The translations under genes and the position numbers were made by a program. The notes below the pieces were generated by a model. It was given only the letters and a program-made list of their open reading frames with translations. It had not been told where the DNA came from and made no database searches. Of a stretch of 64,000 bases of DNA, positions 2,050-55,325 are shown piece after piece. Every line of letters begins with the position of its first letter. Within the stretch, counting starts at the first letter, position 1. Source of the DNA: Azolla caroliniana (lineage: Eukaryota; Plantae; Polypodiophyta); assembly GCA_043228905.1 (NCBI GenBank), contig JBHGNT010000004.1:4898001-4962000 (forward strand). Direction: 5' to 3'.

Positions 2050-3860
2050 GGTGGAATATTACCTTTCACTTACAAGTTACTACGAAGAGTTGTCAAGTTG
2101 CTTTTAAAATTGCTTATAGCATCGAGAACATAAGGCTACAGAGAATTCAACATCGATTACTGAAGGGGTGGTGGGTGCCTTTCAACAATAGAGAATTTTC
2201 ATGTAAGGGCTTGATTGGGTGACATGTTGTTAGATGGATGGAGATTTATTTCTCGAAGCAATGTGATGTTATGCCCACCACTGGAAGGTTACTTCACTCG
2301 TCGTGGGGTATACCAAAGCTATAAGGATGACATGTTATTGGAAAGTGTACCTTATATACAATATCAACATTTTTAATCGTTGTCAGATAACTTCACTCGT
2401 CGTGGGGTATACCAAGGCTATAAGGATGACATGTTATTGGAAAGTGTACCTTATATACAATATCAACATTTTTAATCGTTGTCAGATAAGTTCACTCGTC
2501 GTGGGGTATACCAAGGCTATAAGGATGACATGTTATTGGAAAGTGTACCTTATATACAATATCAACATTTTTAATCGTTTATGGAGATCAAAGTTTAACA
2601 ATGTGGTCATACCTCGCAAGGTTCGGATGGTTGTTTGTTCGATCTGCGCGAGTTTAAAAAGCTTGGCAAAGAGTGGGACAACAGATGAAGAAATAACAAA
2701 ATATAAGACTTTATTGAGAGGAAAGCCAAGCGTTGGGAAGATCTAAAGCTATGCACCATCGTCAAAAAGTGCTTCAATCACCAGAAAGATACACGTGCTT
2801 GATTATAGATGGGATGGATCAGAAGAAAACTTGTTTGCCACATTTTCGAAGATTGCCCAAGGATATTGGAGATGAATGCCTAGTGCAGATGCACTTAGTA
2901 GGATGTCTTTTGTATTGTCAGACAATAAGGCCTCAAGTGTTCTTAACTTATCCAAATATCCACAACGACCCCAATCTTACACTTACAGTCATGCAAAGAG
3001 TTCTAATGAGTTGGCAAGGTTTACTCCCACCAGTACTATACGTGCAACTTGACAACACGGCGAGAGGAAACAAAACTCAACTGTGTTTGGTTACTTGAGC
3101 ACGTTAGTAGACAAGGGTATTTTCAAAAAGATTAAGGTCAACTTCTTGCTAGTTGGTCATACACATGATCACATAGAAAAAATGTTAAGTAGGTTCTCCA
3201 AGAAATTAGCGAGGTACGATGCTTTCACACTTCTTGTGCTATCAAGGTTGATCATTGAAGCTTATATCCCAAGCCAGATGTACAACATTTAGATGAAGTA
3301 TATGATTTCAAGCGCTTCTGTTTGGATGGTGATGGGACTGGATGTAGGGTTCTTGCTCCGCTTAATAATATAAGTTTTAACCACGTCTTCGTCCAAAAAA
3401 GTGTGGTCGGTCACAAACAAACCATGTTGTATGCCAAACAATACTCATCTAGTTCGCAATGGGAGCCACAAGATGTATGTAGGCTCTTATTGCATTTCCC
3501 AAATGCAATAATCTATGGTCTTCATAGAACATTTGTAATAATCTATGGTGCAATAATCATAGGGTTGTTGGTAGTTCAATTGAAGAGCAAAATATATATT
3601 GGATGCGGTGCATTGAAGAAAAACAGAAAAATATTGAGTGAACCAAAAAGTACGATGGTGATCAGGATGTGGATTGGTGGGATGTCTTCTTTAATCATCA
3701 ACATACAATATTAGATAACCACTTTATAGGGTACTGGCCACTACAAAATCAATTCGAATGGGCGCTTGGTGGCCCATCAATGGAAACTGCATGACTCCTT
3801 TACAACCACTAGATAATCTTGAATTGAATACTCTAGTTTGTCCATGACAAAGAGATATTT
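2050..3860 (+). pseudogene. Decayed Sola-like (probably Sola1/DUF7869-type) DDD transposase, 5' part
   Basis: Motifs IIDGMDQKKTCLPHF, LYVQLDNTARGNK, FLLVGHTHDHI in ORFs 2733-3098 and 3083-3292; frameshifts; interrupted at 3860 by the next element. Confidence 0.6.
2293..2580 (+). repeat. 99-bp tandem repeat, about 3 copies
   Basis: TTCACTCGTCGTGGGGTATACCAA recurs at 2293, 2392 and 2491. Confidence 0.95.
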
Positions 3861-4200
3861 GGGTCGAAGCATGCTACGGTGTACCAACTTTTGGCCAAAA
3901 ATTTAGTACTAAATCGAAGAAGAAAATAAACATTAAAAATTGTAAATAAGTTTCAAAAAACAAAAAACAAATTCATTACGTCACACTCGAATGCACAAAG
4001 ATATTGTACGTCACACTCGAAATGTCCCTAGGCCATATTTAATACATTAATTGTTGCCCCAGTCTCCTAGGTAGAGTTGTACGAAAGCACACCTGGAGAA
4101 GGTATCCATTGTGACAGTTGGTCAGTCTCAGTATCTCTCTCTCTCTCTCTCTCTGGTATGGGTAGTCGAACGTGTCAATTGGTATGTCTCTCTCTCTCAC

Positions 4201-4262
<62 letters not shown>

Positions 4263-4553
4263 GTCTCGAAGTTGTCAGACAGACAGTGGCAGAAAGTTAA
4301 AGAAAGACGACATATATATTACAGGTCTATCTCTCTGTTTCTTTCTTTCACTCCACCTTCGATTCTTTCTGTTTTTTTCTTTCAAAGCTCTGTTTCTTTC
4401 TTTCTTTCTGTTTCTCTCTCTCACTCCACCTTCGATGCTCTGTTTCCCCGCGTAGCTGTTCTTGTGTTCCCCTCTGTGCCAGGTTCGATCTCTGAACGCA
4501 GAGATTTTTGTTTCCCCTGCTCGTTGTATGTGTTGTTGATTTTCCTTCCTTGT

Positions 4554-4845
4554 GTATGCTCGTTTGTTTCCTCTGTCTATGCTCGTTTGTCTCCTCTGCA
4601 GCAACCTCGTTTGTCGAAATCAACACGGTCTGGTACCTCTGCAAGTTGTACAACCTCCAGGTATTCTCTGTGTTGCATGCCCAATACTCAATGTTTTCTT
4701 TTTCTGAATGTTTCCTGTCTGTCTGTATGCTCGTTTGTTTCCTCTGTCTATGCTCGTTTGTCTCCTCTGCAGCAGCCTCGTTTGTCGAAATCAACACGGT
4801 CTGGTACCTCTGCAAGTTGTACAACCTCCAGGTATTCTCTGTGTT
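4554..4845 (+). repeat. Direct repeat of about 120 bp at 171-bp spacing, downstream of (CT)n microsatellites at 4134-4260
   Basis: GTATGCTCGTTTGTTTCCTCTG...GGTATTCTCTGTGTT at 4554 and 4725. Confidence 0.9.
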
Positions 4846-5194
4846 TTTGTTTTCTCTGTGTTTCTCTGTGTTCCTTTTAAAAATGTATGAAAATATTTTG
4901 ATCGAGGTGGTTGTGTGTTAGACATGTTTGTACATGCAACGTAAATGGAGTTGGCTATGATGAGTTGCTATGTTTTCGTTTTGTTCTTGTTTCTTGTCCA
5001 TCTGTTTTATTTTGTGTGAGTTTGACATGGATGAGTGTTTTTCCGACTATTTTGGGTTTTTGTGTGTTTGACATGGCTTGTACGTGGGATGTGATGGAGT
5101 TGGCTATGATGATTTACAATGTTTTCGTTGGCTTGTGATGGAGTTGGCTTGTGTGTTTTACGATGTGATGGAGTTGGCTTGTACATGCGATGCG

Positions 5195-5303
5195 ATGATT
5201 TACAATGATTTACAATGATGGAGTTGGCTATGATGATTTACAATGATGGAGTTGGCTATGATGATTTACAATGATGGAGTTGGCTATGATGATTTACAAT
5301 GGA
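5195..5303 (+). repeat. 28-bp tandem repeat
   Basis: GATGGAGTTGGCTATGATGATTTACAAT at 5217, 5245 and 5273. Confidence 0.9.
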
Positions 5304-5449
5304 GTTTTTTTCCGACTATTTAGGGTTATTGTGTGTTTGACATGGTTTGTACATGCAATGAGATGATTTGCTATGTGTTGATGGTAATTGCTTGAGTTTT
5401 CTTCTAGTACATGCATATTCATTCCCTGAGAATTGTGTTGACTAGGACA

Positions 5450-8400
5450 ATGACGAGAAGGACACCCATAAAGAAGACATTGATGAAAGAGAAAGTGAAG
5501 ACACCAGTGAAGGAAGGAAGAAGGACACCCATGAAAGAAAGCAAGAAGACACCCACAAGAGAAAGGGTGATGAATTCATCAACACAGAGAAAGAAGATGT
5601 ACCACTCCATCAGTCGAGACACACCTCTTGGATGGAATTATTTCCTTCGAGCACGACCTGACGTGTATCCAGAGCTGAGAGAGTGGTTGTTGAAAACCTG
5701 GGGGTCAGCACATCCCGACACAAGGCGAGGATTCCACATAAGTGGTTTGAAGAGGGAATACATGAATTTATTGAAGACGAGATACGAACATGTTTATGAT
5801 ACAAATCAAATCACTAACAATGAGGTGGGTACTGTTTTTGCACGTGCTTTTGCATGTGAAGTTCAAGGTGGCATTGACGTAAATTGGGAAGATTTTAATC
5901 GGCACCGGTCAGAACATTACAAAGGGTCCTCCAGTACCAACACTGGCTTGAAGTCATCTGGAACCTCTCATGTGGATATTCTAGCTATAACACCTATCCA
6001 CCAAGTTCTAGAGGCAAAGGTACGGGCCACAATGACTGAAAAGCATGAACAGATGATGGCCGGTTGCATAGCTTCTATGAGCTCAAGAATACAAACACTA
6101 CTTGCTGATTTGGAAGCAGTTAAATCAGCTGAGATATAGGCAGAAAAGAAATTTTCTTCAATAAAAACTACATATGAATGGATTGCATCGACAATCCAAA
6201 ATTCAGAAAGTGAGGTCTTGAAAGAGGAGTTGAAGAAAGAGCTAAACAATATGGGCACTCAATTAGGTTCACAGATGAGAGACCTTGATACTTGCAGGAA
6301 TGCACATGAAGAAATAGATAATAAGTTGTCAGCCTTAAAGTTGCATTCTGAGAACCTTGCATGCTTGATGCAGGATTTAAAACAAAATGGTTTTGATACT
6401 TTGTGTCCATCTGTAATTGAGCACCCAAGTGGTATAGAAAGTACCATTATTAGTATAGCTATATCACGGTATTGGCTTTAAAAGTTATTTATTTCTACTT
6501 CTTTGGTATAAATAAGTGAGCAACTAATATATTATAACTTGTGTTTGCAATCTTCCAGGTGTATATTTTGTGGCCTTGGATTCAAGCTGGAGGCTATGGA
6601 TGTTGTGATTACACCATGCTTGCACACATATCATGTGCTATGTGCTAAGTATCATTTTGAGAAAGAGAATACATGTATGGACTGTAAAACTACAATTGCG
6701 GCTGAGTGGTACTATGCTTGGGGTTTAAAAGTACACCCGTACGGTATGTGGCTCTACTATTCTATTGTTTGTATTATATGATGTCAATTAACATTTGGAC
6801 TAGAACTAGTGTATGCTACAATTCATACTTCAAATTTAGTGTAATCTCTAACAACTATTATGTGGAACCCTAATTATGTGGGTTAGTATTGGCAGTACTC
6901 TTAATATATAATTGGTATGTGTAGTTGAAGGGATATTTTCCACAATTAGTAGTACTAAAAGGGAACCAGGTACAACATCGTCCAATCTATATTGCAACTT
7001 GCCTAGTATTAGTTTAGTAAACACTATACTTATAGTACACTGTTGTCTGTTAACATTGTTTGTGTAACTTGGGAATTAGTACTAGTAATGTAATTTGGGA
7101 ACAAGGTGTATAGTAAATTGTTGAATAATAGTACAATTATTGTAATTTGGAAATGAGGTGTGTCAAACACATATCACGTTTAGTACTAATACTGTTCAAG
7201 ATTAATACTGTTGGTGTAATTAGTACAAGTTATGTAACTAGGTGTGTAGAAGACATATAATGTTTAGTATTACTTGTGTGCAAAATACCAATCTACATTT
7301 GTTGGATTAGTACTTAGTAAGTACTACATGCTTCATGAATAGTACTAGTTCTGTACTTTGTGAACTAAGTTACTAGTACATTGCTCATGATTAATACTAG
7401 TTTTGTAATTTGGGAACTGAGTAGTACTTTGTTCCTTATTAGTACTAGTTTTGTACCTTATTAGTACTAGATCAGTAATCTAGAAAATAAGTGAGTAGTA
7501 CATTTTGTAGGATTAGTACTAATTGTGTAATTTGACTAAGTCAGTGGTACATTGTTGAGTAGTACATTGTTCAGGATTAGTACTAATTGTGTAATTTGAC
7601 TAAGTCAGTGGTACAATGTTCGGGATTAGTACTCCTTGTGTAATTTGCTAACTAAGTGAGTAGTATATTGTGCATGATTAGTACTACTTGTGTAAATTGG
7701 GAACTAAGTGAGCAGTACATTGTTCGGGATTAGTACTCCTTGTGTAATTTGGTAACTAAGTGAGTAGTATATTGTGCATGATTAGTATTACTTGTGTAAA
7801 TTGGGAACTAAGTGAGCAGTACATTGTTCGGGATTAGTACTCCTTGTGTAATTTGGTAACTAAGTGAGTAGTATATTGTGCATGATTAGTATTACTTGTG
7901 TAAATTGGGAACTAAGTGAGCAGTACATTGTTCGGGATTAGTACTCCTTGTGTAATTTGCTAACTAAGTGAGTAGTATATTGTGCATGATTAGTACTACT
8001 TGTGTAAATTGGGAACTAAGTGAGCATTACGTTGTTCGGGATTAGTACTCCTTGTGTAATTAGGTAACTAAGTGAGTAGTATATTGTGCATGATTAGTAC
8101 TACTTGTGTAAATTGGGAACTAAGTGAGCAGTACATTGTTCGGGATTAGTACTCCTTGTGTAATTTGCTAACTAAGTGAGTAGTATATTGTGCATGATTA
8201 GTACTACTTGTGTAAATTGGGAACTAAGTGAGCATTACGTTGTTCGGCATTAGTACTCCTTGTGTAATTTGCTAACTAAGTGAGTAGTATATTGTGCATG
8301 ATTAGTACTACTTGTGTAAATTGGGAACTAAGTGAGCATTACGTTGTTCGGGATTAGTACTAGTTCAGTGATTTAGGAAATAAGTGAGTAGTACATTGTT

Positions 8401-10498
8401 CAAGATTAGTACTACTTATTAATTTGACTTAGTCAGTGGTACATTTTTCGGGATTAGTACTTGTGTAATTTGGTAACTAAGTGAGTAGTATATTGTGCCT
8501 GATTAGTACTACTTGTGTATGTTGTGCATGATTAGTACTAATCGTGTAAATTGGGAACTAAGTGAGCAGTACAGTGTTCCTTATTAGTACTAGTTCAATA
8601 ATTTAGGAACTATGTGAGTAGTACATTGTTCATGACTGGTACATTGTGTAAAATGGGAAGCAGCTCTTGTGACCTACATTATATATTTTAGATGATGGTA
8701 CTAACATTCAAGGTTTTTTTGTTTCTTGCAATGAATGTTGTAGTGTCAAGCAACTCCACGCCAGGGAAGGTAATGGAACAACCAGCCCCTGTGCCTAAAC
8801 CCTCAATATCTGCTGCACATTCCAAGGTTCAGGGACCATCATTACCAATAACCTATGATTTTTATGATGAGGATGAATGTATGAGAAGGGCCATTGGAGC
8901 ATTCCCCAAGCTCCGGTCAACATCAAGAAATAGAGCCCACTAAGAAGAGAAATGCAGTTTCTTTACAAATAGAGCCCAGTAAGAAGAGAAATGCTGCAAG
9001 AATGTTGTATGGAAACGGCAAGAAAGGCAAAGTTGAATGCAATGGTGAGTCATATAAGTTCTCACCTGTCTGGAGCATTGTCAACCTAATCCATTGTCTA
9101 ATACCATGTACTTGTGTTACTAGCTGATGATGAAATGATATTTGGTGACGGAGATACGAGTCCAAAACCTGATCATGAAGACGAATTTATCACACTCCCA
9201 GGTACACGTCAAAAGCCAGACTTTGAAAACAATGATTTAGCTCATAACAACCCTATTCTTGTTGTTATTATAGATCATAACAACACTGTTGAGCACCTAG
9301 ATGTTGTGGAGAAGATGACCGAGCCCACCACTTGCAATGGGGTATCTACGGCTGTACAGTATGACGATGTAACATTAGGTAAAAATGTGGCCCTAAACCC
9401 TATGTTCATTGTTTGCAAACTTTTGAGTATTTGAGTTCATACCAATATTCTTTGGAATCCCACTAATTAGGTTTACAAGAGCAGTCTGATTCCCAACTGC
9501 AATCAAATGAATCGGGAACTTCATGGAGCACAAGTGCAGAATCAGATTCCCATCAGAGTCAGAATCAAATTAACCTTTGCAAGGAGGCAGACTCTAGAAG
9601 CACATCTTCCACACATGAGGATTGTGAGAAAAACGAAGCATTCATATGTGAAGAGCAGCTGGCATGTACAAACAACACTATGTCTAAAGAAGCCTATGAG
9701 TGTGGAAAGAATATGGCAAGTACTGAAGAGAAGATTGAAGCCCATGAAGAGTGTGGAAAGAATATGGCAAGTACTGAAGAGAAGACTGATTGTACTGATA
9801 ATGTGGCAAGTGCTGAAGAGAAGACTGATTGTACTGATAATGTGCTAGTACTATCTAAAGATTCCCATGAGGATCATGGAAAGAACATTGCTAGCAATGA
9901 AGAGGAGCTTGATTGTACTGAGAATGTGCTAGTAGTGTCTTGTGAAGCCCATGAGGATCGTGGAAAGAACATCGCTTTCCCTGAAGATAAGCCTGATTGT
10001 ACAAAATCCCATGAGGAGTGTAGAGTGAACAACGTTACTAATGAAGGTGGGCCTGATTGTACTCAGAGCGAACAACGTTGTCTTAAGAATGAGGTGACAT
10101 CCATCGTACAAGAGGAGTTGACCATGACTACTGCCACGGTCCACATACAGGAGTCTAATAAGAACGAGTGTATAGGCATCGGTGATGATGATAGGGCAAT
10201 AAAGATCGCTAGGAGTACAAGCATTCAGGAGATGAGTGATAATTTGTCTATCGACAGCACCTTTGTGGATTTGTGTACAAGCATTGCAGTTGCAGAAAAC
10301 ATAGTTGCTCTCTCAAGCTTGCCACCAGTACAAGGTGCCCGCGCATCCACGCCTGTCTCTGATGCCTCTGATGATGAAGTGCCACTTAGTCAGCTCATAC
10401 CTAAAGGCTTTAAGATAAAGAAGAATGTAAAATCAGAAAAATCTGGCACCAACAACAAGCGCATTACAAGATCGGCCAAGTTACCCTCTAGTGCCTGA
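5450..10498 (+). pseudogene. Multi-exon accessory gene of Sola2-like copy 1: basic N-terminus, coiled coil, RING-H2 finger, acidic repetitive tail
   Basis: Exon 5450-6468 (one in-frame TAG at 6137), GT-AG intron 6469-6558, RING-H2 exon 6559-6743 (CIFC-x15-CLHTYHVLC-x10-CMDC), intron 6744-8743, phase-compatible exon from 8744; later exons to 10498 less certain; homologous to 46436-53425. Confidence 0.7.
7540..8630 (+). repeat. Intronic minisatellite: 104-bp dimer of two diverged 52-bp monomers, rich in AGTACT
   Basis: GTACATTGTTCGGGATTAGTACTCC at 7715, 7819, 7923 and onward, alternating with GTATATTGTGCATGATTAGTA. Confidence 0.95.
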
Positions 10499-11612
10499 TT
10501 GTCTTTCGATTGTACTTGAACTTTAGTTGTTAGTGATGTCTGAAATTGAACTATTTGGATACCAAAATACTGTTTCAATTGCCAATGTAAAAAATCCAGT
10601 TCATGAATCTGAAATAGTTATACCAGTGTGAAATCAAGTTCATGTTTAAGGATTGCTTCTATATTTTGCTCATCAACATATATCAAAAACAATGGGAATA
10701 TACTTTTTGATCTAAGTATTCTTATTTTACAACGTTTTGTTTCTTTTTTGAGATCATCTCCTAATCCTCGCAAAGTCTTTCAGTCTATTGTAGATAAAAT
10801 GCTTGAAAGTCTTCTTAGCTTGCTAGGAAAATTTAGGTTTTTAGGTGTTGATGATGAGAAACAGAAAATATCGAGTATCGGGTGTTATTGAAGATATCCT
10901 GAAGTATAGACTGTTTCATCAATCCCATTTGGACGGTAACCAGAATGTGTGCAAATTGTTGAAGCAATGTGGGCCATATTTTGATGATATCATCCCAAAG
11001 GATGAATCATCCACTAACAGTAGTAAGGAAACACATACCTTTTTGAGCTATCACAAATTATTGTTTCAGAAGTTGGATTATTTTGTTAAGGAAAGGAAGG
11101 TTTGTACTTTAAAATCCATAGCCTGGATATTCAGGACTTATATACAAGAAGTAAAAACTCAGATGGCTTCACAGGACATATCATGAAACAAAAAAGGATT
11201 CTGAGAGAATAATTTTCATTGTTGTCTTCACAGAATTCATCGCCCCCTTTGAAAAATGAACTTACAGTAGAAAATCTTACAATATTAAAGTCTTTAATGA
11301 ATTCAACTAACAATCTTCTCTTCGTAGCAAAAGAAGAGCAGATTTATGTGCCAACAGAGGACACACCAACTCTGCAAAACTCCTATGCTCAAATAACATC
11401 AGGAAACATGAGCAATATCGGCAATGAAGAAATCCAAGTCCTGTTGATAACAACTAATATATTATGAAAGATAAGTACAAGTGGTTGAGAGGCATAAACC
11501 CTTTGGAAGAAAGACGAAATATATCAATTCATTTGTCAATCATCAAAATTAATAGTGAACTCCAAGTGGATGTTTTTCAGTTTTCTAGTACAATGTATTG
11601 ATAGGGTGACTT

Positions 11613-14600
11613 TCAAGCATTAAATAGAGAGACCTCCCCTAATATGTGCTCATGAACCTCTTGGGGGACCTTGTAGACAGTGTTGTATCCCTTAACCTTG
11701 TGCTTTGCTTGAGTCATATTGAATTTGATCGCAAGAATGGCATCAGCGTAGATTATTGCGATGGGTGCTTCTTTTAGTAATGCATATGTGTTCTTGCACT
11801 GCGGCAACTTTGCATAATAGTTTCCATACACGACAGACTCACCAACGTTGAAATTGTTGCCCCAACCATCCCTCACCACTTCTTTCAATAATGTCTTTCC
11901 TTGCTTGCACACCACAATGTAGTAGTCTTCTAAATCTTCATTCTGAGAATATTTGAGCACTGCAAAATGATCTCCAACTTCCAATAAAACTGCCAAGTCT
12001 TGATTTTGGTTGTAGTATACAATATCGTTTGAATGCACATCCTCTTCAATATCATCTTGTAGTTCAGGCTCAAGCTTCTGCAGCTTCCAGGGCTCCACGA
12101 TTGATAGGTTGATGCATTTATCCCAAGCTTCATCTAGACACATGGAACAAAAGCATGATAAACTACGGAGTAACAATTGGGTTGTGTCCTTGCGGCTAAA
12201 CCCTAACACACAATGGGTGCTGCGTGTCCCTTTCACGGTTTTACAACCATATGATTTAGTTCTATCGACCTCATCAGCGCGAACTTCAACAAACAATCTG
12301 TTCTTACCATCATTTGACATCTTCCATGTTAGCCACTGCACAACATCATGTGCATTTTGTAACTTAGCGCCATTATTATCCAACTGCTCACTTGTAAGGG
12401 CACGTTTGATCACAGCCCCCGCGCCATCATGCTCTCCTTTTCCATGTCCAGACCCGAAGTAATTCCATTGCATACGAATATTGAATAAGGAGAAATACCT
12501 GCTTTGGTGAGTACAAGATGAGTACAATACTATGAGTACAACATGAGTAAATACTGATTTAGTACAATTCTCTTAAGGACGGACAATACTATGAGTACAA
12601 GATGAGTACTTTATATCCTCCTGTAAACACAACATAGTACAGATACAACACACAACATAGTACAATGTGTCTATGGAGAACCCTTCACATGGATTAAAAC
12701 ATAATTAGTACAATTCTCTTAAGGACGGACAATACTATAAGTACAAGATGAGTACTTTACATCCTTTTGTAAACACAACATAGTACAAAACCAACACACA
12801 ACATAGTACAATGTGTCTATGGAGAACCCTTCACATGGATTAATCGATACTTAGTACAATTCTCTTAAGGACGGACAATACTATGAGTACAAGATGAGTA
12901 CTTTACATCCTCCTGTAAACACAACATAGTACAGATAGGACACACAACAAAGTACAATGTGTCTATGGAGAACCCTTCACATGGATTAAAACATAATTAG
13001 TACAATTCTCTTAAGGACGGACAATACTATGAGTACAAGATGAGTACTTTACATCCTCCTGTAAACACAACATAGTACAGATAGGACACACAACAAAGTA
13101 CAATGTGTCTATGGAGAACCCTTCACATGGATTAAAACATAATTAGTACAATTCTCTTAAGGACGGACAATACTATAAGTACAAGATGAGTACTTTACAT
13201 CCTTTTGTAAACACAACATAGTACAGAACCAACACACAACATAGTACAATGTGTCTATGGAGAACACTTCACATGGATTAAAAGTTACTTAGTACAACAT
13301 AATACAAACAAAATTAGTATGCATGCATCCATTCACAAGTGCAAGATTCGAATAGTTAGAAACATAATTAGTATGCATCGATGTGACTAGTACTGTTTGT
13401 TAATAGTTACAAACATAATTAGTATGCATCCACTAACACAAGATTTACTTCCTTACACATTGCATGATAAGTATTAAACATATGGATTAAAAATTACCTG
13501 GCGATAAAGTAGAACGATCGTGCCGCCTTAAACTGCGAGGCAGCACCATCAGACCAAACCCAATGACGGTTAAAGGTTAACCCTAGAGAAAATAAATCTG
13601 CATGGTGAAGCTTAAAACAATGTTGAACAAATAGTGTATCATGCTTTTTATCATCTGAAATGTAAAATATTGATTTCTTATGTAACTCACCGTCTTGCCT
13701 CCAATAGCAAATATGTACAAGTATTGTACATTGATCATTGTACCAATGCATTGATTGAACCTCATTTTGAACTTTAAATGTATAGTTTTCTGCAAAATCA
13801 ATAACGGATACAATGACACCCGTTGGTAAGTTATTAATACATTCCTTGAATTGTGAATTTTGCCAATAACTCCGGAAGTTATGTGGAATAAACTCCCCAA
13901 GTTGTTTCTTAAATTCTGAGACAAGGGTAGCAGCACATGTCTCCTTATATACTTCCTTGATACGCTTAGTTACAACTCCCTTGCCAATATTTTCAGTCAC
14001 ATACTCCAAATATTTCCATTTCACGATATGACTATTTCCCATATCAAGCTCCTGCCTACAAAATAATGGTAGCGGACAAACCTTACATGTTCTTAATAGA
14101 CATGTACGACGATGCCACTCACACGATGGTTCTTTTTCACAAACACAAGACCTCCATAGCTCAGAAACGGATGCATAAGTCATGTTTCGTGCATTACACC
14201 TATTATCCTCCCCATTTGGTCTACAAATCTCACAAGTGCAGACACATAATTCCCCATGTATACCCTTAGAATCAGTACGCATTGCATTCACAGAAACCCT
14301 TAACATGTCCATCTTCACATGGTACACACAACAACATGTATTCCTCTCATTTAATTTTCTAACATAAAATGGTTTCAAACCTTGGAACTTGCGGAATCCG
14401 ACAGTCAAGCTTGGATGTTGGTCTTTAAAGTTCATGTACAATTCAGCCTACATCAACCAATATATATAGCAAACATTAATATACACTTGGTCAAAACAGA
14501 AAGTTATGGAATGTGAATTGATATAAAAAAATGGAATACCTCTGTCATCTCCAAGAAGTGTCTAGGGTGAATCTGGTACATACCCTGACTTATTCGTTGT

Positions 14601-15166
14601 CTACACACGTCCTTCTTATTTGGTGAGACACGCGTATTTTTGGCCCAAAATGAATCCACTTTCTCAATAATCTCTTGAGATAAGGCATCACATCGTCGTC
14701 TACGTCCCGACCCCAGCCACTTGAATTTGCTTGAGTGTATATTTCGGCGATGTTTCCTCAAGTTCCTTCTTTGAATACCCAGGGCTAAGGCAACTTTAGT
14801 ATCACTATATTTTTTTTCTCTCACACCATTCACAACCATGTGTAGGGCTGCCCTCTTTGCAGCAAGTTTGTCTAAGCTCTCTACACCTTTCACTAAGTCT
14901 AGGGATGACTTCATAGACTCCACAATCTCTTCTGAAACACATTGGTCCCTAAATTTTATTCTCTCCATGTCTTCATTCAAACTTTGATGGTGTAACACTC
15001 TACAAATAATATCCCTACGATCCTCTTCACTAAATCTCTTCGTTATTTCTACCAAATAACGAACTATGTGAAGAACCACTCGTCTCTTAGTCCTTTCAGA
15101 TATGCATGAGTTACTTGACAACTCACTCTCGTTAGGAACCCCCATTCGGTCACTAGATTTATCCAC
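11613..15166 (-). CDS. Spliced Sola-type DDD transposase (copy 1), apparently open across three exons
   Basis: Exons ~15166-14540, 14447-13498, 12498-11613 joined by in-phase GT-AG introns (MTE|AELYMNF; FIAR|YFSLF); motifs CCCVYH, VIDFAENY, WSDGAASQFK, GHGKGEHDGAG, SCFCSMC; start codon uncertain. Confidence 0.8.
12520..13295. repeat. 146-bp tandem repeat, about 5 copies, in transposase intron 2
   Basis: AGTACAATTCTCTTAAGGACGG at 12561, 12707, 12853, 12999 and 13145. Confidence 0.95.
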
Positions 15167-15199
15167 AAAAATTAAGTGTCTTGCGAAAGTAGTTAATGT

Positions 15200-15995
15200 T
15201 ATATAGACTCAACCAAGAAAACACAATCAAATGTTTTTAAATGTGGCCTGCAAAGTGAGAAATATTTTGTTTCAAACATTAGAATTACATATCAAATATG
15301 GCAAATGTCAATTCTAAAAATTTAGTACTGAAATATGAAGAAATGAAACATTTTAGTACTGAAAATGAAAAAAATGGATGGAAGGAACCTCCAATGGTGG
15401 AGGGAGCGTGGATATATAGACTCAACCAAGAAAACACAATCAAATGTTTTTAAATGTGGCCTGCAAAGTGAGAAATATTTTGTTTCAAACATTAGAATTA
15501 CATATCAAATATGGCAAATGTCAATTCTAAAAATTTAGTACTGAAATATGAAGAAATGAAACATTTTAGTACTGAAAATGAAAAAAATGGATGGAAGGAA
15601 CCTCCAATGGTGGAGGGAGCGTGGATATATAGACTCAACCAAGAAAACACAATCAAATGTTTTTAAATGTGGCCTGCAAAGTGAGAAATATTTTGTTTCA
15701 AACATTAGAATTACATATCAAATATGGCAAATGTCAATTCTAAAAATTTAGTACTGAAATATGAAGAAATGAAACATTTTAGTACTGAAAATAAAAAAAA
15801 GGATGGAAGGAACCTCCAATGGTGGAGGGAGCGTTGGATATGCCGCCTCGATTTGGTGGAAGGAACCTCCAATGGTGGAGGGAGCGTGGATATGCAGCCT
15901 CGATTTGGTGGAAGGAACCTCCAATGGTGGAGGGAGCGTTGGATATGCCGCCTCGATTTGGTGGAAGGAACCTCCAATGCCACCTCGATTTGGTG
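15200..15995. repeat. 213-bp tandem repeat x3 running into a 52/53-bp repeat x3-4
   Basis: GACTCAACCAAGAAA at 15206, 15419, 15632; GGAAGGAACCTCCAATG at 15805, 15858, 15910, 15963. Confidence 0.92.
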
Positions 15996-16547
15996 GAAAA
16001 AGCCCCAAATCACCACGACATCAACTGCAATCGGTGGAAGTACGAAAGTCGTTGTCAAAGAAGTGACTATTGGCTGCTACCTAAACCCTCAGAACAGTCT
16101 CTGTACCTCAACCGAAACCTAACAAAAACAGAAACCCTAAAAAAATCAGAAATCCTCAACTCAAACTCTCCAACCAGACATGGATGTCTGAGATTTAGAT
16201 TGAAGGAAAATCAGAAACGTGACATGGATGTCTGTGATGAAAAGCTCAGAGAGATAGAGGAAGAACAGTATGAGGGGAATCGCCAAAACGACGTGAGGGG
16301 AAGCGCCAAAATCGACGTGAGGGGAAAATAGCCCCCAAAATGGAAGAACATCTCCTCACGTGTTCCCCCCACTCCTTCTACAGTAAATGACACTTGTACT
16401 ACAGTCACCCCACTCTCCAAAATCGATTTTCTTTTTCTCTAATTTTTTTTCTGAATTATTCAGTACTAACAGTATTGAAAGTACTGACAATTTTTGTGGC
16501 CAAAAACAGTACTTTTTTGGTACCCCGTAGCGTGCTTCGACCCATTT

Positions 16548-17087
16548 ACGTGGACCAAGATTATCACATTAGCTGGGGGTGATAAGTTGGGCCATCCATT
16601 CTGGATTGCCAAAATCATTGAAATTTTTAAGGATGATGAAGGCAATCAAGTAAAGTCTATTATGGTTCATTGGTATCATACCTCTTCCAAAGATGCATTT
16701 ACTGGGAAGTACTCTTTAGAGATGGTTAAGGATGTCGAAGGCACAAGCAGAAAGCGAAGAAGAAAGAATCTACCAAGCACGTCTAGTCTAGCACTTGATA
16801 ATGTCGACAAGTATGTGTATGAATTCTCCTTGACGAAAACAGGCCATCTAAGACAGACTACAATCAAGATAATAAAAGAGAAAATCCCAGATGTGCCTAT
16901 TGACGCAACACAGAGACGAACAAGGAGCATGTCTCATAATCATGATGACGTTGGATTGCAATCGGATGAAGACAATGCATTGGTTGCTAGTGATGATGAG
17001 GATGAGACCTCGCAAAGCTCTTCTACTTCATTGGGTGGGTTTGAAGGGGAAGGCGTATCTCTGGGTAGTGATGGATCTCATATATGA
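16548..17087 (+). pseudogene. 3' part of the interrupted Sola-like host transposase
   Basis: Resumes after the ATTT TSD; GHPFWIAKIIEIF...IMVHWYHT domain and acidic tail; element appears to end near 17355 where old copia sequence begins. Confidence 0.55.
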
Positions 17088-17355
17088 AATGTAAATATTG
17101 TATGTTACATCAATATGGCGATTCACAAATATGTATAAATATACATCTTAGTCATTTTGTAATTTTTGTACATTCTCTTGTAAATTTCACGTGTCAATTA
17201 TTAGGGGCATTTTTTGAAAGCCCTAAATTTTTAGACATGATATAAATAAATATATTTTGATTCAATTTCCAAAACCCTTTACGCATGCGATGGTCATTTT
17301 TGTGAAATGACCTACTTTGTGCCTTTTTTGGACAGACTGTTCTTAAATGACCCGG

Positions 17356-17539: not shown

Positions 17540-17805
17540 TGACAGGAACTGCACGCTCCCTATAAGCAACGCTCGGCCACAACCGAGCTTAGAATCATAC
17601 AGAGAAAACGGGAGATAAATGCACGATATAGTGAAGAGAAGAGTACACAAGATGTTTACGTGGAAAACCCAAACTAGGGAAAAACCACGGTAGCCCACAG
17701 GCTGCAAATTATCACTATGTTAGAATGTACAACAGTGAGTTCACGGAGGCAACGACCTCGTGCTCACGATGTTCGCCATAGGCGGCAGTTTCAACAGAGG
17801 CAACG

Positions 17806-17846
<41 letters not shown>

Positions 17847-20800
17847 TACACGGTTACACGCTCTCTCTCTTCTTGCACCAACAAGAATAACAACGACTCT
17901 AAAAGTTTGCCCTAAGTCATATTTATACTAATATGACTTTTCGGCTATTTACACATATAGCCATGATGGACTCTCAGAAACATATTTACGAATATGTCTC
18001 TTCATCCGGTGAGCACTCCTCACCGGGTCTGCACCATCCGGCTCTCCTCACCGGGTACTCCTCATCCGGTTCTCACCGGGTCTGCACCATCCGGCTCTCC
18101 GTAGCCGGGTACTCCTCATCCGGTTCTCACTGGGTCTGCACCATCCGGCTCTTCGTAGCCGGGTACTCCTCATCCGGTTCTCACCGGGTCTGCACCATCC
18201 GGCTCTCCGTAACCGGGTACTCGTCATCAACACTGTTCTTCTCCTGAGGGACCTGTCTCCCAACAAACTCCCCCTTCACTCCGGCATGGGGTGTCTTACT
18301 AGTCCGATCCTCTTCCGGCATGCATCCAGCTTGTCGGGTATCAGCACTTTGGTCAGCATATCTGACCCGTTCTCGGCCGTGTGGATCTTCGTCAGTGCGA
18401 ACTCCTGTTCATCTACTCTTTCCCGGATCCAGTGATATCTTCGCTGGATATGCTTCGTCCGTGAATGGTAGGCCGCATTCTTAGCAAGATGGATGGCACT
18501 TTGACTGTCACAATAGAGTCGGTATTCATCTTGTCGGATACCGAGCTCTCCGATGAAGTCCTTCATCCATAATATTTCCTTGCTGGCTTCCACAGCCGCC
18601 ATGTACTTCACCTCCGTGGTTGACAATGCAACTGTCTTCTGCAGCGTCGATTGCCACGAGACAGCTCCCCCTGCATATGTCATTACATACCCGGATGTAG
18701 ACCGGCTGGTATCCACATCAGCCGACACCGTCAAGTTGAGGTTTTCCGGAGCCGAATCAGAGACACATGTTTGAAGTGCCCTTCAAATACCAGAGTATCC
18801 ATTTGACCGCATTCCAGTGCTCCTTGCCGAGATTGCTCATAAACCGGCTCACCACTCCGACTGCGTATCCTATATCCGGTCGGGTACACACCATTGCGTA
18901 CATCAACCTCCCGACGGCAGAGGCATATGGAATCTTCATCATATCCGCCTTCTCTGCTTTCGTCTTCGGGCTTTGCTTACTGGATAGCCTGCAGTTTGCC
19001 GGAAGTGTCGATCCGACCGGTTTCGCATCTGACATGTTGAGCCGCTCAAGCACCTTTGTCACGTACTTCTCCTATGACAGCCATAATTGCTTCATTGACC
19101 GGTTCCGAATAATATGCATCCCCAACATCTGTCTTGCCGGACCCAAGTCTTTCATTGAGAAGGTCCGGTTGAGAGCCTTCTTCAGCATCCGTATTTTGGC
19201 TTGGTCCTGTCCGACGATCAACATGTTGTCCACGTACAGAAGGAGTATTAGGAAGTCACCTCCTTCGAACTTCTTCACAAACACGCAGTGATCGGCCTGC
19301 GTCTTGTGGTACCCTTGATCGGTCATGAAGGAATCGAACTTTCGGTACCATTGTCGGGGAGCCTGCTTTAGTCCGTACAGGCTCTTCTTTAGCTGGCATA
19401 CCAGGTGCTCCTTCCCTTTCTCCACAAATCCCTCCAGTTGCTGCATGTAGATCTCCTCTTCGAGGTTGCCGTGAAGGAATGCCGTCTTCACATCTAGCTG
19501 TTCTACCTCGAGGTCCATGCTTGCCGCTATACTCAGCACCGTCCGGATGGAGGTCATCTTTATTACCGGGGCAAATATCTCGTCAAAGTCCACGCCCTTT
19601 TTCTGCTGGAACCCCTTCACCACGATCTTGGCTTTGTATCTCGGGGGGTTGCTGGCATCTCCCGGTTTCAACTTGTACACCCACTTGTTTCGGAGTGCCC
19701 GCTTTCCTTTCGGCAACTCCACCAATTCGTACGTATGGTTCTCATGCAGGGAATCCATCTCATCCTGCATGGCACTTAACCATTTGCGGCTGTGGGTGTC
19801 ATCCTTCGCTTCTTCAAAGCTTTCCGGCTCCCCCTCATCGGTCAATAGAACATGCTCTGCATCCGGAAATCTCCGGGGCGCCCTTCTCTCTCTGAGAGGA
19901 TATCTCTGTCTTCGGGCTTCGGTAACCGGCTCCTCCATTTGCTCTTCATCCGAATCCGATTCGGGGTCTATGCTGGTTCCGGTTTCAGCTTCCTCTACTT
20001 CTTCTTCAGCCTGTTCGGTATCCTCACCGTAACCGACTAGTCCCTCGAGTGCCGGTCTCTTGCCGGTTGGATCTGCTCATCGTAGAGTCGATCCTTACCG
20101 GTCGACTCGGAGTTCATTATCTTCTTCTCCGACTCCCAGTCGGCGAGCGTCTTGTCCTCCATGAAGATAATATCTCGACTCCGGAATACCTTCTTGTCGA
20201 CCAGGTCCCACACTCGGTAGCCGAACTCATCGTCACCGTAACCGAGGAATATGCATGGCCGGGTCTTTGGATCTAACTTTCCTCTCCGGTCCTTAGCTAC
20301 ATGCACGTATGTGAGACACCCGAATACCTTCAGATGCCGGTAGGATACTTCCTTACCGGTCCATACTCTCTGTGGCGTGTCTCCGTCCAAGGGTACTGAG
20401 GGTGATCTATTTATCACATATATCGCCGTCGACAATGCCTCAGCCCAAAACTTCGTGGGTAGTTTTTCATGCGCTAGCATGCTTCGGACCCTCTCCATTA
20501 TGGTCCGGTTCATTCTCTCGGCCAGTCCGTTTAGTTCCGGCGTCTTCGGCACGGTAAATTCGAGCCGGATTCCCTTCGAGCGGCAGTACTCCTCGAACTG
20601 CCCCCGATATTCTCCTCCGTTATCTGCTCGAACCGCCTTCAGCTTCTGGCCGGTTTCTCTTTCCAGTCTCGCGTGGAGCTCTTTGAAGACGGATAACACC
20701 TGATCCTTCGTCTTCAACGGTGTGGCCCACAGCTTCCGGTTGTGGTCATCTATGAACGTCACGAAGTATTGCGCTCCGGCATGTAACTTCGTGTCTACTT

Positions 20801-23089
20801 GACACACATCCGTATGCACCAACTCCAGTGGTGCATTATGTCTCATCGGTGGCCTTGGTCGGAAGGAGGTCCGGTTTTTCTTACCGGCCAGACAATCAGT
20901 GCACTTCTCCAAGTGCACGTTCTTCACTGGAATGAGGTTGTTGTCTACAACCCTCTTCATCCCCTTCTCGCTCATATGACACAACCTCTTGTGCCACAGC
21001 TCACCGGCAGTGTCGGATGCCACGTTCACTTCTTCCAGACATAACCGGGCATTCATCAAGTACAGTGTGTTGACCTTCCGGGCCCGAGCCATAATCTGGC
21101 TCCCTTTGCTAAACTTCATGACACCGTTCCGGATGCTACCCGTGTAGCCTTCATCATCTAGCCGACCGGCTGATATCAGATTCAGACGAACCTCCGAAAC
21201 GTGTCAGATATCCTTCAGTAGCAACTTGCATCCGGTTGGTGTTGTCAGCCACACGTCTCCTATGCCGACAATTCGGCATGTTCCTTCATTCCCCATTCGG
21301 ACACAGCCGTGATCACCGGCTGAGTAGGATGAGAAGCATTTCCGGTCCGGGGTAAGGTGGAATGACGCTCCGGAGTCGACCACCCAGGTCATCTCGTCGC
21401 CGGCAAGGTTTATCTCACTCTCCTCGGTGATGAGCATCAACTCTTCTTCACTTGCCACGATTGCCGTCGTCCCCTTCCGGTCCGTCCCCCTCCGGTCTTT
21501 ACCGTTTCAGTCTGGTATCCGCTTCGAATCGGTATCGTCGGTTTCCTTGTCCTTTCGGAAATGCCGACAGTTCTTCTGGAAGTGTCCCGGCTTGCCGCAA
21601 TAGAAGCAAGTAGGTCTCCCCCTTGACTTTGACCGTGTCCCCGACTTTTCCCGGTTCTGGGGACTACAGTTTCTTTGTCTTCCGCGTTCCGATTCGGTAA
21701 GGAGCGCTTTGGACTCGGAGCTCGTATCTTTATCTTTCCAACACGCCTCCTCATCTAGCAAGCTCGACTTTACTCTTACTAGGGATAACCGCTTTCCTTC
21801 CGGCCCGGCGTTGCCCAAAGTGACAACCAACGTCTCCCAGCTATCCGGAAGGGAACCGAGCAGTAGTAGCACTAGTACCTCGTTGGCGAGAGGTACTTCC
21901 AATGATGTTGCCTGGTGTATCAGCCCCTAGAAGGCATTCATGTGCTCCGCCATGCTGGAGCCATCTTGGTACCAGAGTCTTACTAGCTTCCGGAATACCG
22001 AAACCTGATTAACAACATTTTTGTTTTGAAACATTATGCCGATCTTCTCCCAAAGCTCATGAGCCTTGCTCTCTTCATTGAAGTTGTTGTATAGGCTCAT
22101 GTCGATGAAGCACCGTATGTACGCCGTTGTCTTCATATGCATCACCTCCCATATCGTGGCATCGATTTTGTCCGGTCTCTTGTCCCCAAACTGAACCGGC
22201 AACCAAAGATCTTTAACCACGAGCATGTCCCTCATCTTCGACTTCCACACCGAATAGTTGGAGCCCGTGAGTTTGAACATGCCTCCCAACGAATCGTTCA
22301 TTTTCTATGTCGTTTCGCTCTGATACCACTTGACAGGAACTGCACGCTCCCTATACGCAACGCTCGGCCACAATCGAGCTTAGAATCATACAGAGAAAAC
22401 GGGAGATAAATGCACGACACAGTGAAGAGAAGAGTACACAGGATGTTTACGTGGAAAACCCAAACTAGGGAAAAACCACGGCAGCCCATAGGCTGCAAAC
22501 TATCACTATGTTAGAATGTACAACAGTGAGTTCACGGAGGCAACGACCTCGTGCTCACGATGTTCGCCACAGGCGGCAGTTTCAACAGAGGCAACGACCT
22601 CTTTCTCTCTCTCTCTCTCTCTCTCTCTGTACACGGTTACACGCTCTCTCTCTTCTTGCACCAACAAGAATAACAACGACTCTAAAAGTTTGCCCTAAGT
22701 CATATTTATACTAATATGACTTTTCGGCTATTTACAAATATAGCCATGATGGACTCTCAGAAACATATTTACGAATATGTCGCTTCATCCGGTGAGCACT
22801 CCTCACCGGGTCTGCACCATCCGGCTCTCCGTAGCCGGGTACTCCTCATCCGGTTCTCACCGGGTCTGCACCATCCGGCTCTCCGTAGCCGGGTACTCCT
22901 CATCCGGTTCTCACCGGGTCTGCACCATCCGGCTCTCCGTAGCCGGGTACTCCTCATCCGGTTCTCACCGGGTCTGCACCATCCGGCTCTCCGTAACCGG
23001 GTACTCGTCATCCGGTTTCGGCCTCGGCCGAGTTTGTTCACCAACACTGTTCTTCTCCCTTCCCATCCTGAGGGACCTGTCTCCCAACA
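17540..23089 (-). mobile_element. Ty1/copia element A (Tnt1-like), full structure but decayed ORF
   Basis: LTRs 17540-18265 and 22331-23089 (TG...CA); TSD CTTGC; PBS TGGTATCAGAGC (22317-22328, tRNA-iMet); PPT AGGGGGAG; gag-PR-INT-RT-RH split by stops and frameshifts; 54-bp tandem units in U3. Confidence 0.95.
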
Positions 23090-31540: not shown

Positions 31541-34500
31541 TGTAGAAATTCCGTGCTCGGCCACAACCGAGGAACAGGATCGATTCGCAGAAAACGGGAA
31601 ATACAAGAATGCACGAAGAACAACAGAGAGAAGAGCACACAGGATGTTTACGTGGAAAACCCTAAATGGGAAAAAACCACGGGAGTCCTCTAACTCCAAC
31701 TATCACTATACACAGAGATGTACAATGGTGAGGCTACAAGGCAACAACCTTGAGCTCGCTGTCCTCGCCACAGGCGGCGGTATTACACAGAGGCGTCGAC
31801 CTCTTCCTTCCTCTTTCTCTCTCTCACTCTCGCTCGGCTGCTCTCACTTCGCTCCCTCTTAGTGGACAACAGAAAAATGAGCAACAACAAAAAACTGTTT
31901 GCCCTAAGTCATATTTATACATATATGACTTTCGGGCTATTTACAAGTATAGCCTCAAGGGCCCTTGGCAAACATATTCACAAATATGTCTCCGCATCCG
32001 GATCTCTCTCCGGGTACATACGTCATCCGGCTCCGTAACCGGGGTCTTCAGCGTCCGGATCCGCAGCCGGGTACTCTTCATCCGGCTTCATGCCGGGTAC
32101 TCTTCATCATATGGTTCCGTAGCAGCCTCCGGGCTTGCCGTCATTCATCTCCGGACATCCCATCCGGAGGGACCGAAATCCCAACAAACTCCCCCTTCAC
32201 TTCGGCATGGGATGTCTCTCCAACCCGATCCTCTTCCGGCATGCTTCCAGCTTGTCGGGTGTGAGCACCTTGGTCAGCATATCCGACCCGTTCTCGTTCG
32301 TGTGGATCTTCGTCAGCACGAACTCCTTGTCTTCTATCCTTTCCCGGATCCAGTGGTATCTACGCTGGATGTGTTTCGTCCGGGAATGGTAGGCCGCGTT
32401 CTTTGCAAGGTGGATGGCACTCTGACTATCGCAGTAGAGTCGGTACTCCTCCTGCCGGATCCCGAGCTCTCTAATGAAGTCCTTCATCCATATTATTTCC
32501 TTGCCGGCTTCAACAGCTGCCATGTACTCCGCCTCCGTGGTTGACAACGCAACCGTCTTCTGCAGCCTCGACTGCCACGAAACGGCTCCCCCAGCATAGG
32601 TCATCACATACCCTGATGTCGACCGGCTGGTATCTGCATCAGCCGACATATCCGAATCGGTGAAGCCGTCGAGTTCGGGCTTACCGAAGCCGAATCGGAC
32701 ACACACATTTGTCGTGCCCTTCAGGTATCGGAGTATCCACTTGACCGCGTTCCAATGCTCTTTGCCGGGATTGCTCATGTACCGGCTCACCACTCCGACT
32801 GCGTATCCAATGTCTGGTCTTGTACACACCATTGCGTACATCAAGCTTCCGACAGCAGAGGCATATGGTACTTTCATCATGTCCTCTTTCTCAGCCTTTG
32901 TCCTGGGGCTTTGCTTGCTGGACAGCTTGCAGTTTGCCGGGAGGGTTGATCCGACCGGTCTTGCTTCCGACATGTTGAACCGTTGAAGCACCTTTGTCAC
33001 GTACTTCTCCTGTGACAGCCACAACTGCTTCTTGCTCCGGTCCCGGATGATGTGCATCCCTAGTACTTGTCTCGCCGGACCCAAGTCCTTCATTGAGAAG
33101 GTTCGGTGAAGAGCCTTCTTCAGCATCCGTATCTTGACCTGGTCCCGTCCGACGATCAACATGTCGTCCACGTACAGGAGGAGTATTAGAAAGTCTCCTC
33201 CTTCGAATTTCTTCACAAACACGCAGTGGTCAGACTGCGTTTTGAGGTACCCTTCGTCGGTCATGAAGGAGTCGAACTTCCGGTACCATTGCCGGGGAGC
33301 CTGCTTCAGTCCGTAAAGGCTCTTCTTCAACCGGCATACCAGGTGCTCCTTCCCTTTCTTCTCGAATCCTTCCGGTTGCTGCATGTAGATCTCTTCTTCG
33401 AGGTCACCGTGAAGGAATGCCGTCTTCACGTCCATCTGTTCTACCTCGAGGTCCATGCTTGCCGCTATGCTCAGCACCGTCCGGATGGAGGTCATCTTCA
33501 CTACCGGGGCAAATATCTCGTCGAAGTCGACGCCCTTCTTCTGCTGAAACCCCTTCACCACGATCCTGGCTTTGTATCTCGGGGGGTTTCCGGCATCTCC
33601 CGGTTTCAGCTTGAACACCCACTTGTTTCGAAGTGCCCGCTTTCCTTTCGGCAACTCCATAAGTTCATATGTGTGGTTCTCATGCAGGGAATCCATCTCG
33701 TCCTGCATGGCACTCAACCACCTGCGGCTCTGGGTGTCGTGCTTTGCTTCTTCAAAGCTCTCCGGCTCCCCCTCGTCGGTTAGCAGCACGTGCTCTGGTT
33801 CCGGAAATCTCCGGGGGGCCCTTCTCTCTCTTAGAGGATATCTCCGTTCCGGAGCTTCGGTAACCGGTTCTTCCGATTCTTCTTCTTCCGAATCTATTTC
33901 GGGATCGGGGCCGGTTCCGGTATCGTTTTCATCTTCTTCGGCCGGTTCTGTTTCTTCACCGTCTTCGGCCGGATCCTCGAGTGCTAACCGGTCCCTTGCC
34001 GGTCGGGACTGCTCCACGTAGAGTTTATCCTCACCGGTCGACTTTGAGCTCTTCATCTTCTTCTCCGACTCCCAGTCGGCGAGTGTCTTGTCCTCCATGA
34101 AGATGATGTCTCGACTCCTGAATATCTTCTTGTCCACCGGGTCCCATACTCGGTAGCCGAACTCGTCGTCGCCGTAACCGAGGAATATGCATGGCCGGGT
34201 CTTTGGATCTAGCTTTCCTCTCCGGTCCTTTGCCACATGCACGTATGCGAGACACCCGAACACCTTCAGATGCCGGTAGGACACTTCCTTACCGGTCCAC
34301 ACTTTCTGCGGCATGTCTCCGTCCAAAGGTACTGAGGGTGATCTGTTTATCACGTATGTCGCCGTCGACATTGCCTCAGCCCAAAACCCCTTGGGTAATT
34401 TCGCATGCGCCAGCATACTCCGGACCCTCTCCATTATGGTCCGGTTCATCCTCTCGGCCAGCCCGTTTAGTTCCGGCGTCTTCGGCACAGTAAACTCGAG

Positions 34501-39435: not shown

Positions 39436-39849
39436 GAAAGGGAAATATTGTATTGTAGAGTAAAATGGATTACAAGGAGTAGGCAATAGACTACTACAAA
39501 ATGGCGTTGAACCAATTTAGGTTTGGGATGATTGATAGATGGGTGAAAGCACGCTACAGTGTACCAACTTTTGGCCAAAATTTTAGTACTAATTCGATGA
39601 GGAGGAAAGAAAAATAATCCAATATTTGGGTTAAAAAAGTTGAGGTTGTTGGGTCACAGTCCCAGGTAATGTTGTACGGAAATCTTAACTATAGAAGATC
39701 TTGAGTAGTCACTCAATTATGAATATAGTAAATATGTCTCTCTCTCGCTCTCTCTCTTGGCACATATGTTCATCTTGAACTGTCAGTTAGTCTCTCTCCC
39801 CCCCTCTCTCTCCTTCCCCCTTCTACTCATTGATTCCCGAGGTTTGTAC

Positions 39850-40135
39850 CTCCTCTCCCCCTCTCTGTCTCTCTTCTACCTTCTGTACAGGTCTCTGCAG
39901 ACTCCAAGCGCGTCACTGCTCGTCGTTCGTACCTCCTCTACCCCTCTCTGTCTCTCTTCCACCTTCTACACAGGTCTCTGCAGACTCCAAGCGCGTCATT
40001 GCTCGTCGTTCGTACCTCCTCTACCCCTCTTTGTCTCTCTTCCACATTCTACACAGGTCTCTGCAGACTCCAAGCGCGTCACTGCTCGTCCTTCGTACCT
40101 CCTCTCCCCCTCTCTATCTCTCTTCCACCTTCTGC
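39850..40135 (+). repeat. 83-bp tandem repeat x3
   Basis: ACAGGTCTCTGCAGACTCCAAGCGCG at 39887, 39970 and 40053. Confidence 0.9.
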
Positions 40136-46308: not shown

Positions 46309-46435
46309 GTTTTTGTCTCATTGTTGTCCTTATTATGCGTGATTTAATCATATGATGAAAAAAGACAGTTGTGATTGATCTATTGTTATTTTCTATTGTT
46401 GTGTGTGTGAGGTGAAGAAGAGAGATAGGACTCAA

Positions 46436-55034: not shown

Positions 55035-55325
55035 CTAATTTCTTGTTATTTCAGCACCTAATTAATCAGAATAAGTGGTTAATACGTCATAAAATAAACA
55101 TAGTTAATACCCCATAGCATAAATATCAACCGGAAATCGGATAAACATTTGAGAGTTTGCCACAGTCATATATTCCTTTTCCAAAACAATTAACTTTTAA
55201 GAAATAATTGCATCAATTAACTTGTTGTTTGAAATACATAAGTTTTATGACTCACAAGATGAGATGCATGTATACTATTGACATCATGGAGTCTTCTTAA
55301 CTAGAGTTTAAGACTAAGATAAGTA

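Follow-up and report, generated by a model that had tools for sequence, protein, structure and literature searches.

Why should two diverged DNA transposons at one fern locus each carry, beside a transposase gene, a gene for a RING-H2 protein, and what could such a gene do for its carrier? The window, by which we mean the whole stretch of 64,000 nucleotides analysed here (Azolla caroliniana assembly GCA_043228905.1, contig JBHGNT010000004.1, positions 4,898,001 to 4,962,000), holds two such Sola2 elements, copy 1 of family F1a and copy 2 of the older family F2a. An earlier note had read their shared gene (5450–10498 in copy 1) as a transposon-encoded ubiquitin ligase under selection. We found that this accessory gene is element-borne and is the second gene carried by a large clade of Sola2 transposons.

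An element-borne accessory gene

In the genome searched (G000, 523 Mb; best 150 matches of each query), the RING exon of copy 1 has at least 150 scored matches among 807 candidates, 54 of them with an identical protein. A convergent transposase match, counted among the best 150 transposase matches, lies 2–25 kb away from 50 of the 54 identical matches and from 78 of the best 100, the chance of such a neighbour being about 0.003 each. From the 22 seemingly unlinked matches within the best 100 four were fetched, and all four have the left terminal inverted repeat (TIR); TIR or transposase sequence is present at 19 of the 20 fetched RING-exon loci, with neither at L097. In this genome the RING-exon copies reside almost entirely in Sola2 elements. 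An open exon 1 was found in 24 of the best 30 F1 loci as against 2 of 30 older F2 loci, a count biased toward intact copies since the loci were chosen by RING similarity. Two modelled sibling copies have open frames of 937 and 950 aa with GT-AG introns, and two elements of subfamily F1b are 99.5% alike over 11 kb; therefore, the family has moved recently.

Copy 1 (3861–16543, no strand assigned) is flanked by the 4-bp duplication ATTT (3857–3860 and 16544–16547); its left TIR starts with GGG and has a subterminal AGTACT (3861–3905, + strand), and its right TIR likewise carries subterminal AGTACT copies (16490–16543, − strand). The Sola2 DDD transposase of copy 1 (11613–15145, −) has three open exons at about 15145–14540, 14447–13498 and 12498–11613. 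Copy 2 (39541–56448, no strand assigned) has the 4-bp duplication AGAT, two insertions of long terminal repeat (LTR) elements (about 40733–46308 and 48470–51776) and a transposase remnant of exons 1 and 2 (53428–55004, −). In both copies the accessory gene (+) and the transposase (−) stand tail to tail between the TIRs. Target duplications of 4 bp together with TIRs were found in all 11 F1/F2 copies for which both ends were available and in five of five copies of a distant family, F3, described below. The termini are GGG...CCC in 16 of 16 copies, in keeping with 5'-GRG ends, which we take to define Sola2 membership. Compared by eye, the transposase motifs match the published Sola2 alignment (PMC3627910, Additional file 10), including DFAENY...EVQS-HW, ISDD-H, SDGA-QFK and W-(F/Y)F-(T/G)-HGK-DG-G-(V/I)KR with an upstream CxCxxH, and the 4-bp duplications and short TIRs also agree with the description in that paper. 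Sola2 elements with a passenger gene are already known from it, namely Fanzor1 in amoebozoa (PMC3627910); in contrast, the passenger here combines a helical domain, a coiled coil and a RING-H2 finger, the duplications show no AT bias (GGGG, TTGC and ACCT are among those found), and the introns hold motif arrays.

The accessory gene of copy 1 lies on the + strand. Its exon 1 (5450–6468) encodes a basic tail, the helical domain (about 5612–5932) and the coiled coil (about 5996–6388); exon 2 (6559–6743) encodes the C3H2C3 RING-H2 finger (6560–6685), followed by a W-x3-(W)G extension conserved in the family; and intron 2 (6744–8743) contains a 52/104-bp tandem array (7556–8519) with 37.5 AGTAC words per kb. 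Exons 3 (8744–9044), 4 (9124–9378) and 5 (9471–10498) follow, exon 4 being acidic and without detected constraint, and exon 5 encoding an acidic tail, which has a short motif close to the end, and closing with the stop at 10496–10498. In copy 2, exon 1 (46436–47450, +) and the RING exon (47540–47724, +), with all eight ligands present, are followed by a degraded remainder from exon 3 onward (52004–53416, +), cut by an internal deletion that also took transposase exon 3. The earlier note had described a convergent multi-exon gene with matching intron positions and phases in both copies, and every splice site it quoted is present in the sequence: GT 6469, AG 6557–6558, GT 6744 and AG 8742–8743 in copy 1, and GT 47451, AG 47538–47539, GT 47725 and AG 52002–52003 in copy 2, with equal phases (2 and 1). 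The retention of all eight ligands is equally confirmed, as both RINGs read C-x2-C-x15-C-x-H-x2-H-x2-C-x10-C-x2-C. Both copies carry lesions, which the earlier note does not mention, so neither can make the full protein and both are pseudogenes: copy 1 has an in-frame TAG at 6137–6139 and a frameshifting 26-nt deletion near 8900 in exon 3, and copy 2 combines a stop at 47032 and the loss of 4 nt from exon 1 with the two LTR-element insertions and the internal deletion near 53416–53428. In young F1 copies (window 8916–8971; L065 and L061 versus L077 and L079), intron 3 is replaced by a short in-frame exon duplication. An acidic-then-basic motif near the C-terminus (10367–10425 and 53358–53416) is present in both window copies and weakly in two Adiantum proteins, and the surrounding tail diverges.

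Judging from sequence comparison, the partnership of accessory gene and transposase is old and spans deeply split Sola2 families. A remote transposase query identified F3 (112 scored matches), with a transposase core 47% identical; a second distant transposase query recovered nothing but F3 again. The F3 RING is encoded on the strand opposite the transposase, with E <1e-20 in four of the five fetched copies and a partial match in the fifth, and it has at least 150 copies at 96–100%. We modelled the F3 accessory gene as six exons encoding 618 aa, convergent with the transposase and with the domain order of F1; the model is open in two of the five copies, the other three not fitting the modelling anchors. 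The F3 and F1 proteins are 27% identical over residues 192–390 (E 5e-11), their helical domains match weakly (probability 52, E 1.5e-4), and the eight RING ligands are kept in F1, F2 and F3. The F3 RING gene is followed downstream, on its own strand, by an FCP1/NIF-like domain that scores above the Pfam cut-off (L152:6438–7613, −). It has ELDKV at the position of the catalytic motif, presumably DxDxT in FCP1/NIF, and is thus altered there.

We determined that the gene has evolved under constraint. A codon maximum-likelihood (ML) model fitted to four subfamily consensuses gives a dN/dS ratio (omega) of 0.30 overall, 0.22 for the helical domain, 0.29 for the coiled coil and 0.22 for the RING, with 2dlnL against omega = 1 of 92, 30, 49 and 17, respectively; in the same model the basic N-terminal tail (0.54) does not differ significantly from omega = 1. 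NG86 estimates are 0.31 between the F1a and F2a consensuses (95% interval 0.23–0.41; RING 0.17) and 0.33 between the two window copies, the transposase control between F1 and F2 being 0.12–0.17. Old copies compared with their own consensus give 0.69–0.72 and contain 25–32 stops, and between F1a and F1b no constraint was found on exons 4 and 5 (0.87 and 1.63, with wide intervals). For the N-terminal 400 residues dN/dS is thus far from the value near 1 expected of a passive recent capture, which the 0.30 between subfamilies therefore rejects; among the matches listed for G000 there is no closer single-copy host source, nor is evolution near-neutral. The ML dN/dS, the element linkage and the presence in a distant Sola2 family together uphold the view of a transposon-encoded gene under selection rather than a recent host capture.

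As for other features of the window, copy 1 contains a captured host coding-exon fragment (10635–11448, +), 92% identical over 532 bp to G000:C8 at about 7.031 Mb. Its source is a large helical-repeat gene, and the fragment is carried by around 86 young copies; it is present in young F1 copies and absent from L079 and the F2 copies compared. A third gene between the accessory gene and the transposase was considered and ruled out, the candidate being this same host fragment. Copy 1 sits inside a Sola1-like element whose coding sequence resumes across the site (2700–3856 and 16548–17090), and the F3 copy L152 likewise lies within a Sola1-like element (DUF7869); at L153:6168–8628 open frames without a Pfam match adjoin the Sola1-like transposase that flanks L152. 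Four related LTR retroelements, 81–93% alike, occupy 17540–23020, 31541–37003, 40733–46308 and 48470–51776, the last two nested in copy 2.

Motif arrays, methylation and transcripts

AGTACT-type words abound in the non-coding sequence of F1 and F2, and TAGCTA in that of F3, with few such words in exons. In all eight F1/F2 introns examined AGTAC stands at 18–41 per kb, a density that none of the 200 Markov controls made for each intron attained; 157 kb of flanking sequence hold 1.9 per kb. TAGCT in F3 reaches about 140 per kb. Besides the array of the RING-gene intron, copy 1 carries a 146-bp tandem array in transposase intron 2 (12541–13297; AGTAC 36 per kb) and a threefold 213-bp repeat upstream of the transposase (15200–15841; AGTAC 11 per kb in the region). 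BLAST detected no similarity between RING-intron and transposase-intron arrays within F1 or F2, nor between F1 and F2 arrays; therefore, the AGTAC word accumulated several times. The palindromic words adjoin both TIRs in F1, F2 and F3, and most copies are intronic and kilobases away from either end.

The elements also bear traces of methylation. C-to-T changes per 1000 sites amount to 14.0 at CG, 12.8 at CHG and 1.1 at CHH in F1a, and to 98, 135 and 13 in F2a, an approximately 10-fold excess at CG and CHG over CHH that represents a footprint of host methylation. A possible avoidance of CG/CHG context by the motif cytosine proved uninformative, as the arrays are 85–90% CHH anyway.

Transcripts were sought in three poly(A) runs of a relative (organism A), about 12 in 100 reads of each run being used. 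Reads on the accessory exons share one orientation, which fits sense RNA, and intron 2 is free of reads; reads on transposase exon 3 are of the opposite strand. A search for RNA data sets with the genome's own sequence listed none. In run X4, 17 sense reads pass from the RING exon into sequence encoding the end of exon 1 of a homologue, P0002; this splice evidence comes from unaligned read ends, the read mapping itself having reported no junction. The best match of the expressed variant in G000 is 67%, therefore the expressed homologue belongs to a relative. The splicing deduced in the earlier note is thereby supported in part: the exon 1–RING splice occurs in the relative's poly(A) RNA, but that variant is absent from G000.

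Protein domains and the RING surface

The sibling proteins are laid out as helical domain, coiled coil, RING and acidic tail, and AlphaFold predicts a confident helical domain (pLDDT 82, pTM 0.77), a long coiled coil and a RING. For the helical domain, Foldseek and VIA-align (best Z 3.7) gave no PDB match, and none was found in BFVD, Atlas or Pfam, results that do not in themselves make the fold a new one. A dimer prediction for residues 56–320, run without use of the alignment, scored 0.00, which counts neither for nor against a dimer. The RING model superposes on the RINGs of the E3 ligases RNF38, RNF165 (RNF165/Arkadia), RNF12 and RNF13 at about 1–2.4 Å over 46–55 columns, all with E >1e-3. 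It shares their C3H2C3 ligands, but its Pfam zf-RING_2 (PF13639) score of 25.9 is below the cut-off of 27.3, most family RINGs have the W-x3-(W)G extension, and the interface with ubiquitin-conjugating (E2) enzymes differs. Canonical RINGs contact E2 through what we take to be a Trp, a Pro and a linchpin Arg. Sixteen family RINGs were examined, one of which lies outside the pattern; in the 15 that fit it these residues are found in 0, 2 and 1 cases, respectively. The designation as ubiquitin ligase agrees with the RING-H2 fold and its eight ligands but not with the contact residues, and is less secure than the earlier note held; ligase activity is possible but no safe default, because these contacts are not conserved. 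Instead of acting as a ligase by itself, the RING may pair with another RING or serve as a scaffold.

Relatives of the protein are few. A search of 1.84 billion proteins returned 58 matches, in which the named family members are four fragmentary gene models of Adiantum nelumboides; one Nymphaea protein matches through the generic RING only, and three further proteins, around 20% identical, have the same three-part domain order. A profile search from the distant alignment recovered only its own first sequence, and a metagenome scan for homologue context reduced 504 pattern matches to a single locus, 1192 bp long. Among the matches listed, the locus numbers of the Adiantum transposase and RING gene models are not adjacent.

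What the accessory protein may do

The reading that we favour, at a probability of roughly 0.4, is that of a self-targeting, transposon-encoded chromatin regulator. The accessory protein would bind, probably through its helical domain, the short palindromic word repeated in the introns and ends of its own element, and the coiled coil and RING would bring in or modify host chromatin factors, possibly by ubiquitin transfer; as an outcome, the methylated element may stay transcribable, an anti-silencing effect. The model for this is VANC, whose binding motifs form arrays in the introns, intergenic sequence and ends of its own VANDAL family (PMC5735166), and the analogy drawn by the earlier note is strengthened by the family-specific motif arrays in introns. 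As described there for these Arabidopsis Mutator elements, the likeness comprises an accessory gene beside the transposase, a family-specific short motif, fast-changing tandem arrays in introns and ends, and variable protein regions with repeats (PMC5735166). However, VANDAL belongs to another superfamily, Pfam comparison brought up no relation to VANC domains, and the RING is present in the Sola2 gene only; moreover, VANC binding and demethylation are experimental (PMC5735166), whereas the Sola2 gene is known here from its sequence.

Several points weigh against the chromatin reading. No DNA-binding fold was recognised in the helical domain, which is not basic (15 K+R versus 14 D+E), and the Pfam scan of the accessory protein found no family beyond RING and coiled-coil noise, and no VANC domain. 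The degenerate E2 contacts belong here too, and so does the finding that the sequence upstream of the RING gene in F1a, at 0.7 AGTAC per kb, is not enriched in the word; nor is the intergenic region. The two F3 arrays count only once, because they are homologous (72%), and any protection is at most partial, because the copies are visibly methylated. The homologue expressed in the relative could be domesticated. Finally, the transposase could be the motif binder instead, because the motif also adjoins both TIRs, and transposases themselves can activate their own elements (bioRxiv 10.64898/2026.08.24.746577). From the account given there, Spm TnpA and the AtMu1 transposase resemble the present case in that an element-encoded protein acts on clusters of cognate motifs, which diversify as the family does; yet their effect is mostly terminal and the factor transposase-derived, whereas the Sola2 gene is separate and convergent and its motifs mostly internal.

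The main rival is a transposition cofactor or regulator, which would act with the transposase, binding ends and arrays so as to assemble or tune the complex, or would control the transposase level, a possible though somewhat doubtful role. Harbinger, Spm and RAG-type elements have second proteins acting as such cofactors. The motif adjoins both TIRs in F1, F2 and F3, each of the three families examined pairs the gene with the transposase, and RING fingers are reported with Transib/RAG1-type transposases (PMC1131882); yet the bulk of the motif copies is intronic, kilobases from the ends, and the typical Sola size of 2–9 kb given in PMC10741241 would suggest that many such elements transpose without this gene.

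It is unlikely that the protein is a stand-alone RING-H2 E3 ligase degrading host silencing factors in trans, the arrays then being the transposase's or incidental. The ligands kept in three families, the RING omega of 0.22 and the superposition on RNF RINGs fit such a role, but the scarcity of the Trp, Pro and Arg contacts and the sub-threshold zf-RING_2 score do not, and a general attack on silencing would release all transposons and hurt the host. Less probable still is a selfish role outside silencing and transposition chemistry, e.g., in RNA processing or transcript export, with the RING as an interaction module: the helical domain without a fold match, the degenerate ligase surface and the FCP1/NIF-like domain with its altered catalytic motif, which follows the F3 RING gene on its strand, leave room for it, but it does not explain the family-specific arrays, and Pfam scans found no RNA-binding domain. 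Passive capture, in which the elements would carry a host RING gene of no use to them, is largely refuted, for although the elements do pick up host sequence, such as the 92%-identical exon fragment, and a diverged host copy could lie outside the best 150 matches in G000, omega is 0.30 between consensuses versus 0.69–0.72 with many stops on the terminal branches of old copies, the gene is also in the distant F3, young copies have lost an intron in frame, and as named relatives there are four fragmentary gene models from Adiantum.

Among Sola elements, a comparable arrangement is described for Sola1-1_Ec32 of Ectocarpus, a large element whose accessory gene lies on the opposite strand and has been suggested to act upon the DNA of the element itself (PMC12477816); it differs in being Sola1 rather than Sola2 and in carrying a ParB-methyltransferase enzyme domain rather than a RING (PMC12477816). 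No title or abstract that we found describes a RING accessory gene in Sola2, and Repbase entries may already annotate a second open reading frame. The furthest-reaching version of the chromatin reading, which we hold to be rather unlikely, is that Sola2 elements in ferns, and perhaps in further seed-free plants, independently evolved a VANC-like, self-addressed anti-silencing system: a DNA-binding domain of new fold would read the family palindrome, and the RING would deliver ubiquitin to the element's chromatin or silencing proteins. If true, it would represent a transposon-encoded, sequence-targeted ubiquitin writer. What is known of how plant transposons escape DNA methylation comes from experiments on a handful of elements in Arabidopsis and maize, with the step after VANC binding still missing; should the Sola2 RING prove active, ubiquitin would be indicated as that step, and a new targeting domain would be at hand. 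With young, intact families, divergent accessory proteins and different words (AGTACT versus TAGCTA) in one genome, these elements offer a ready swap test of specificity.

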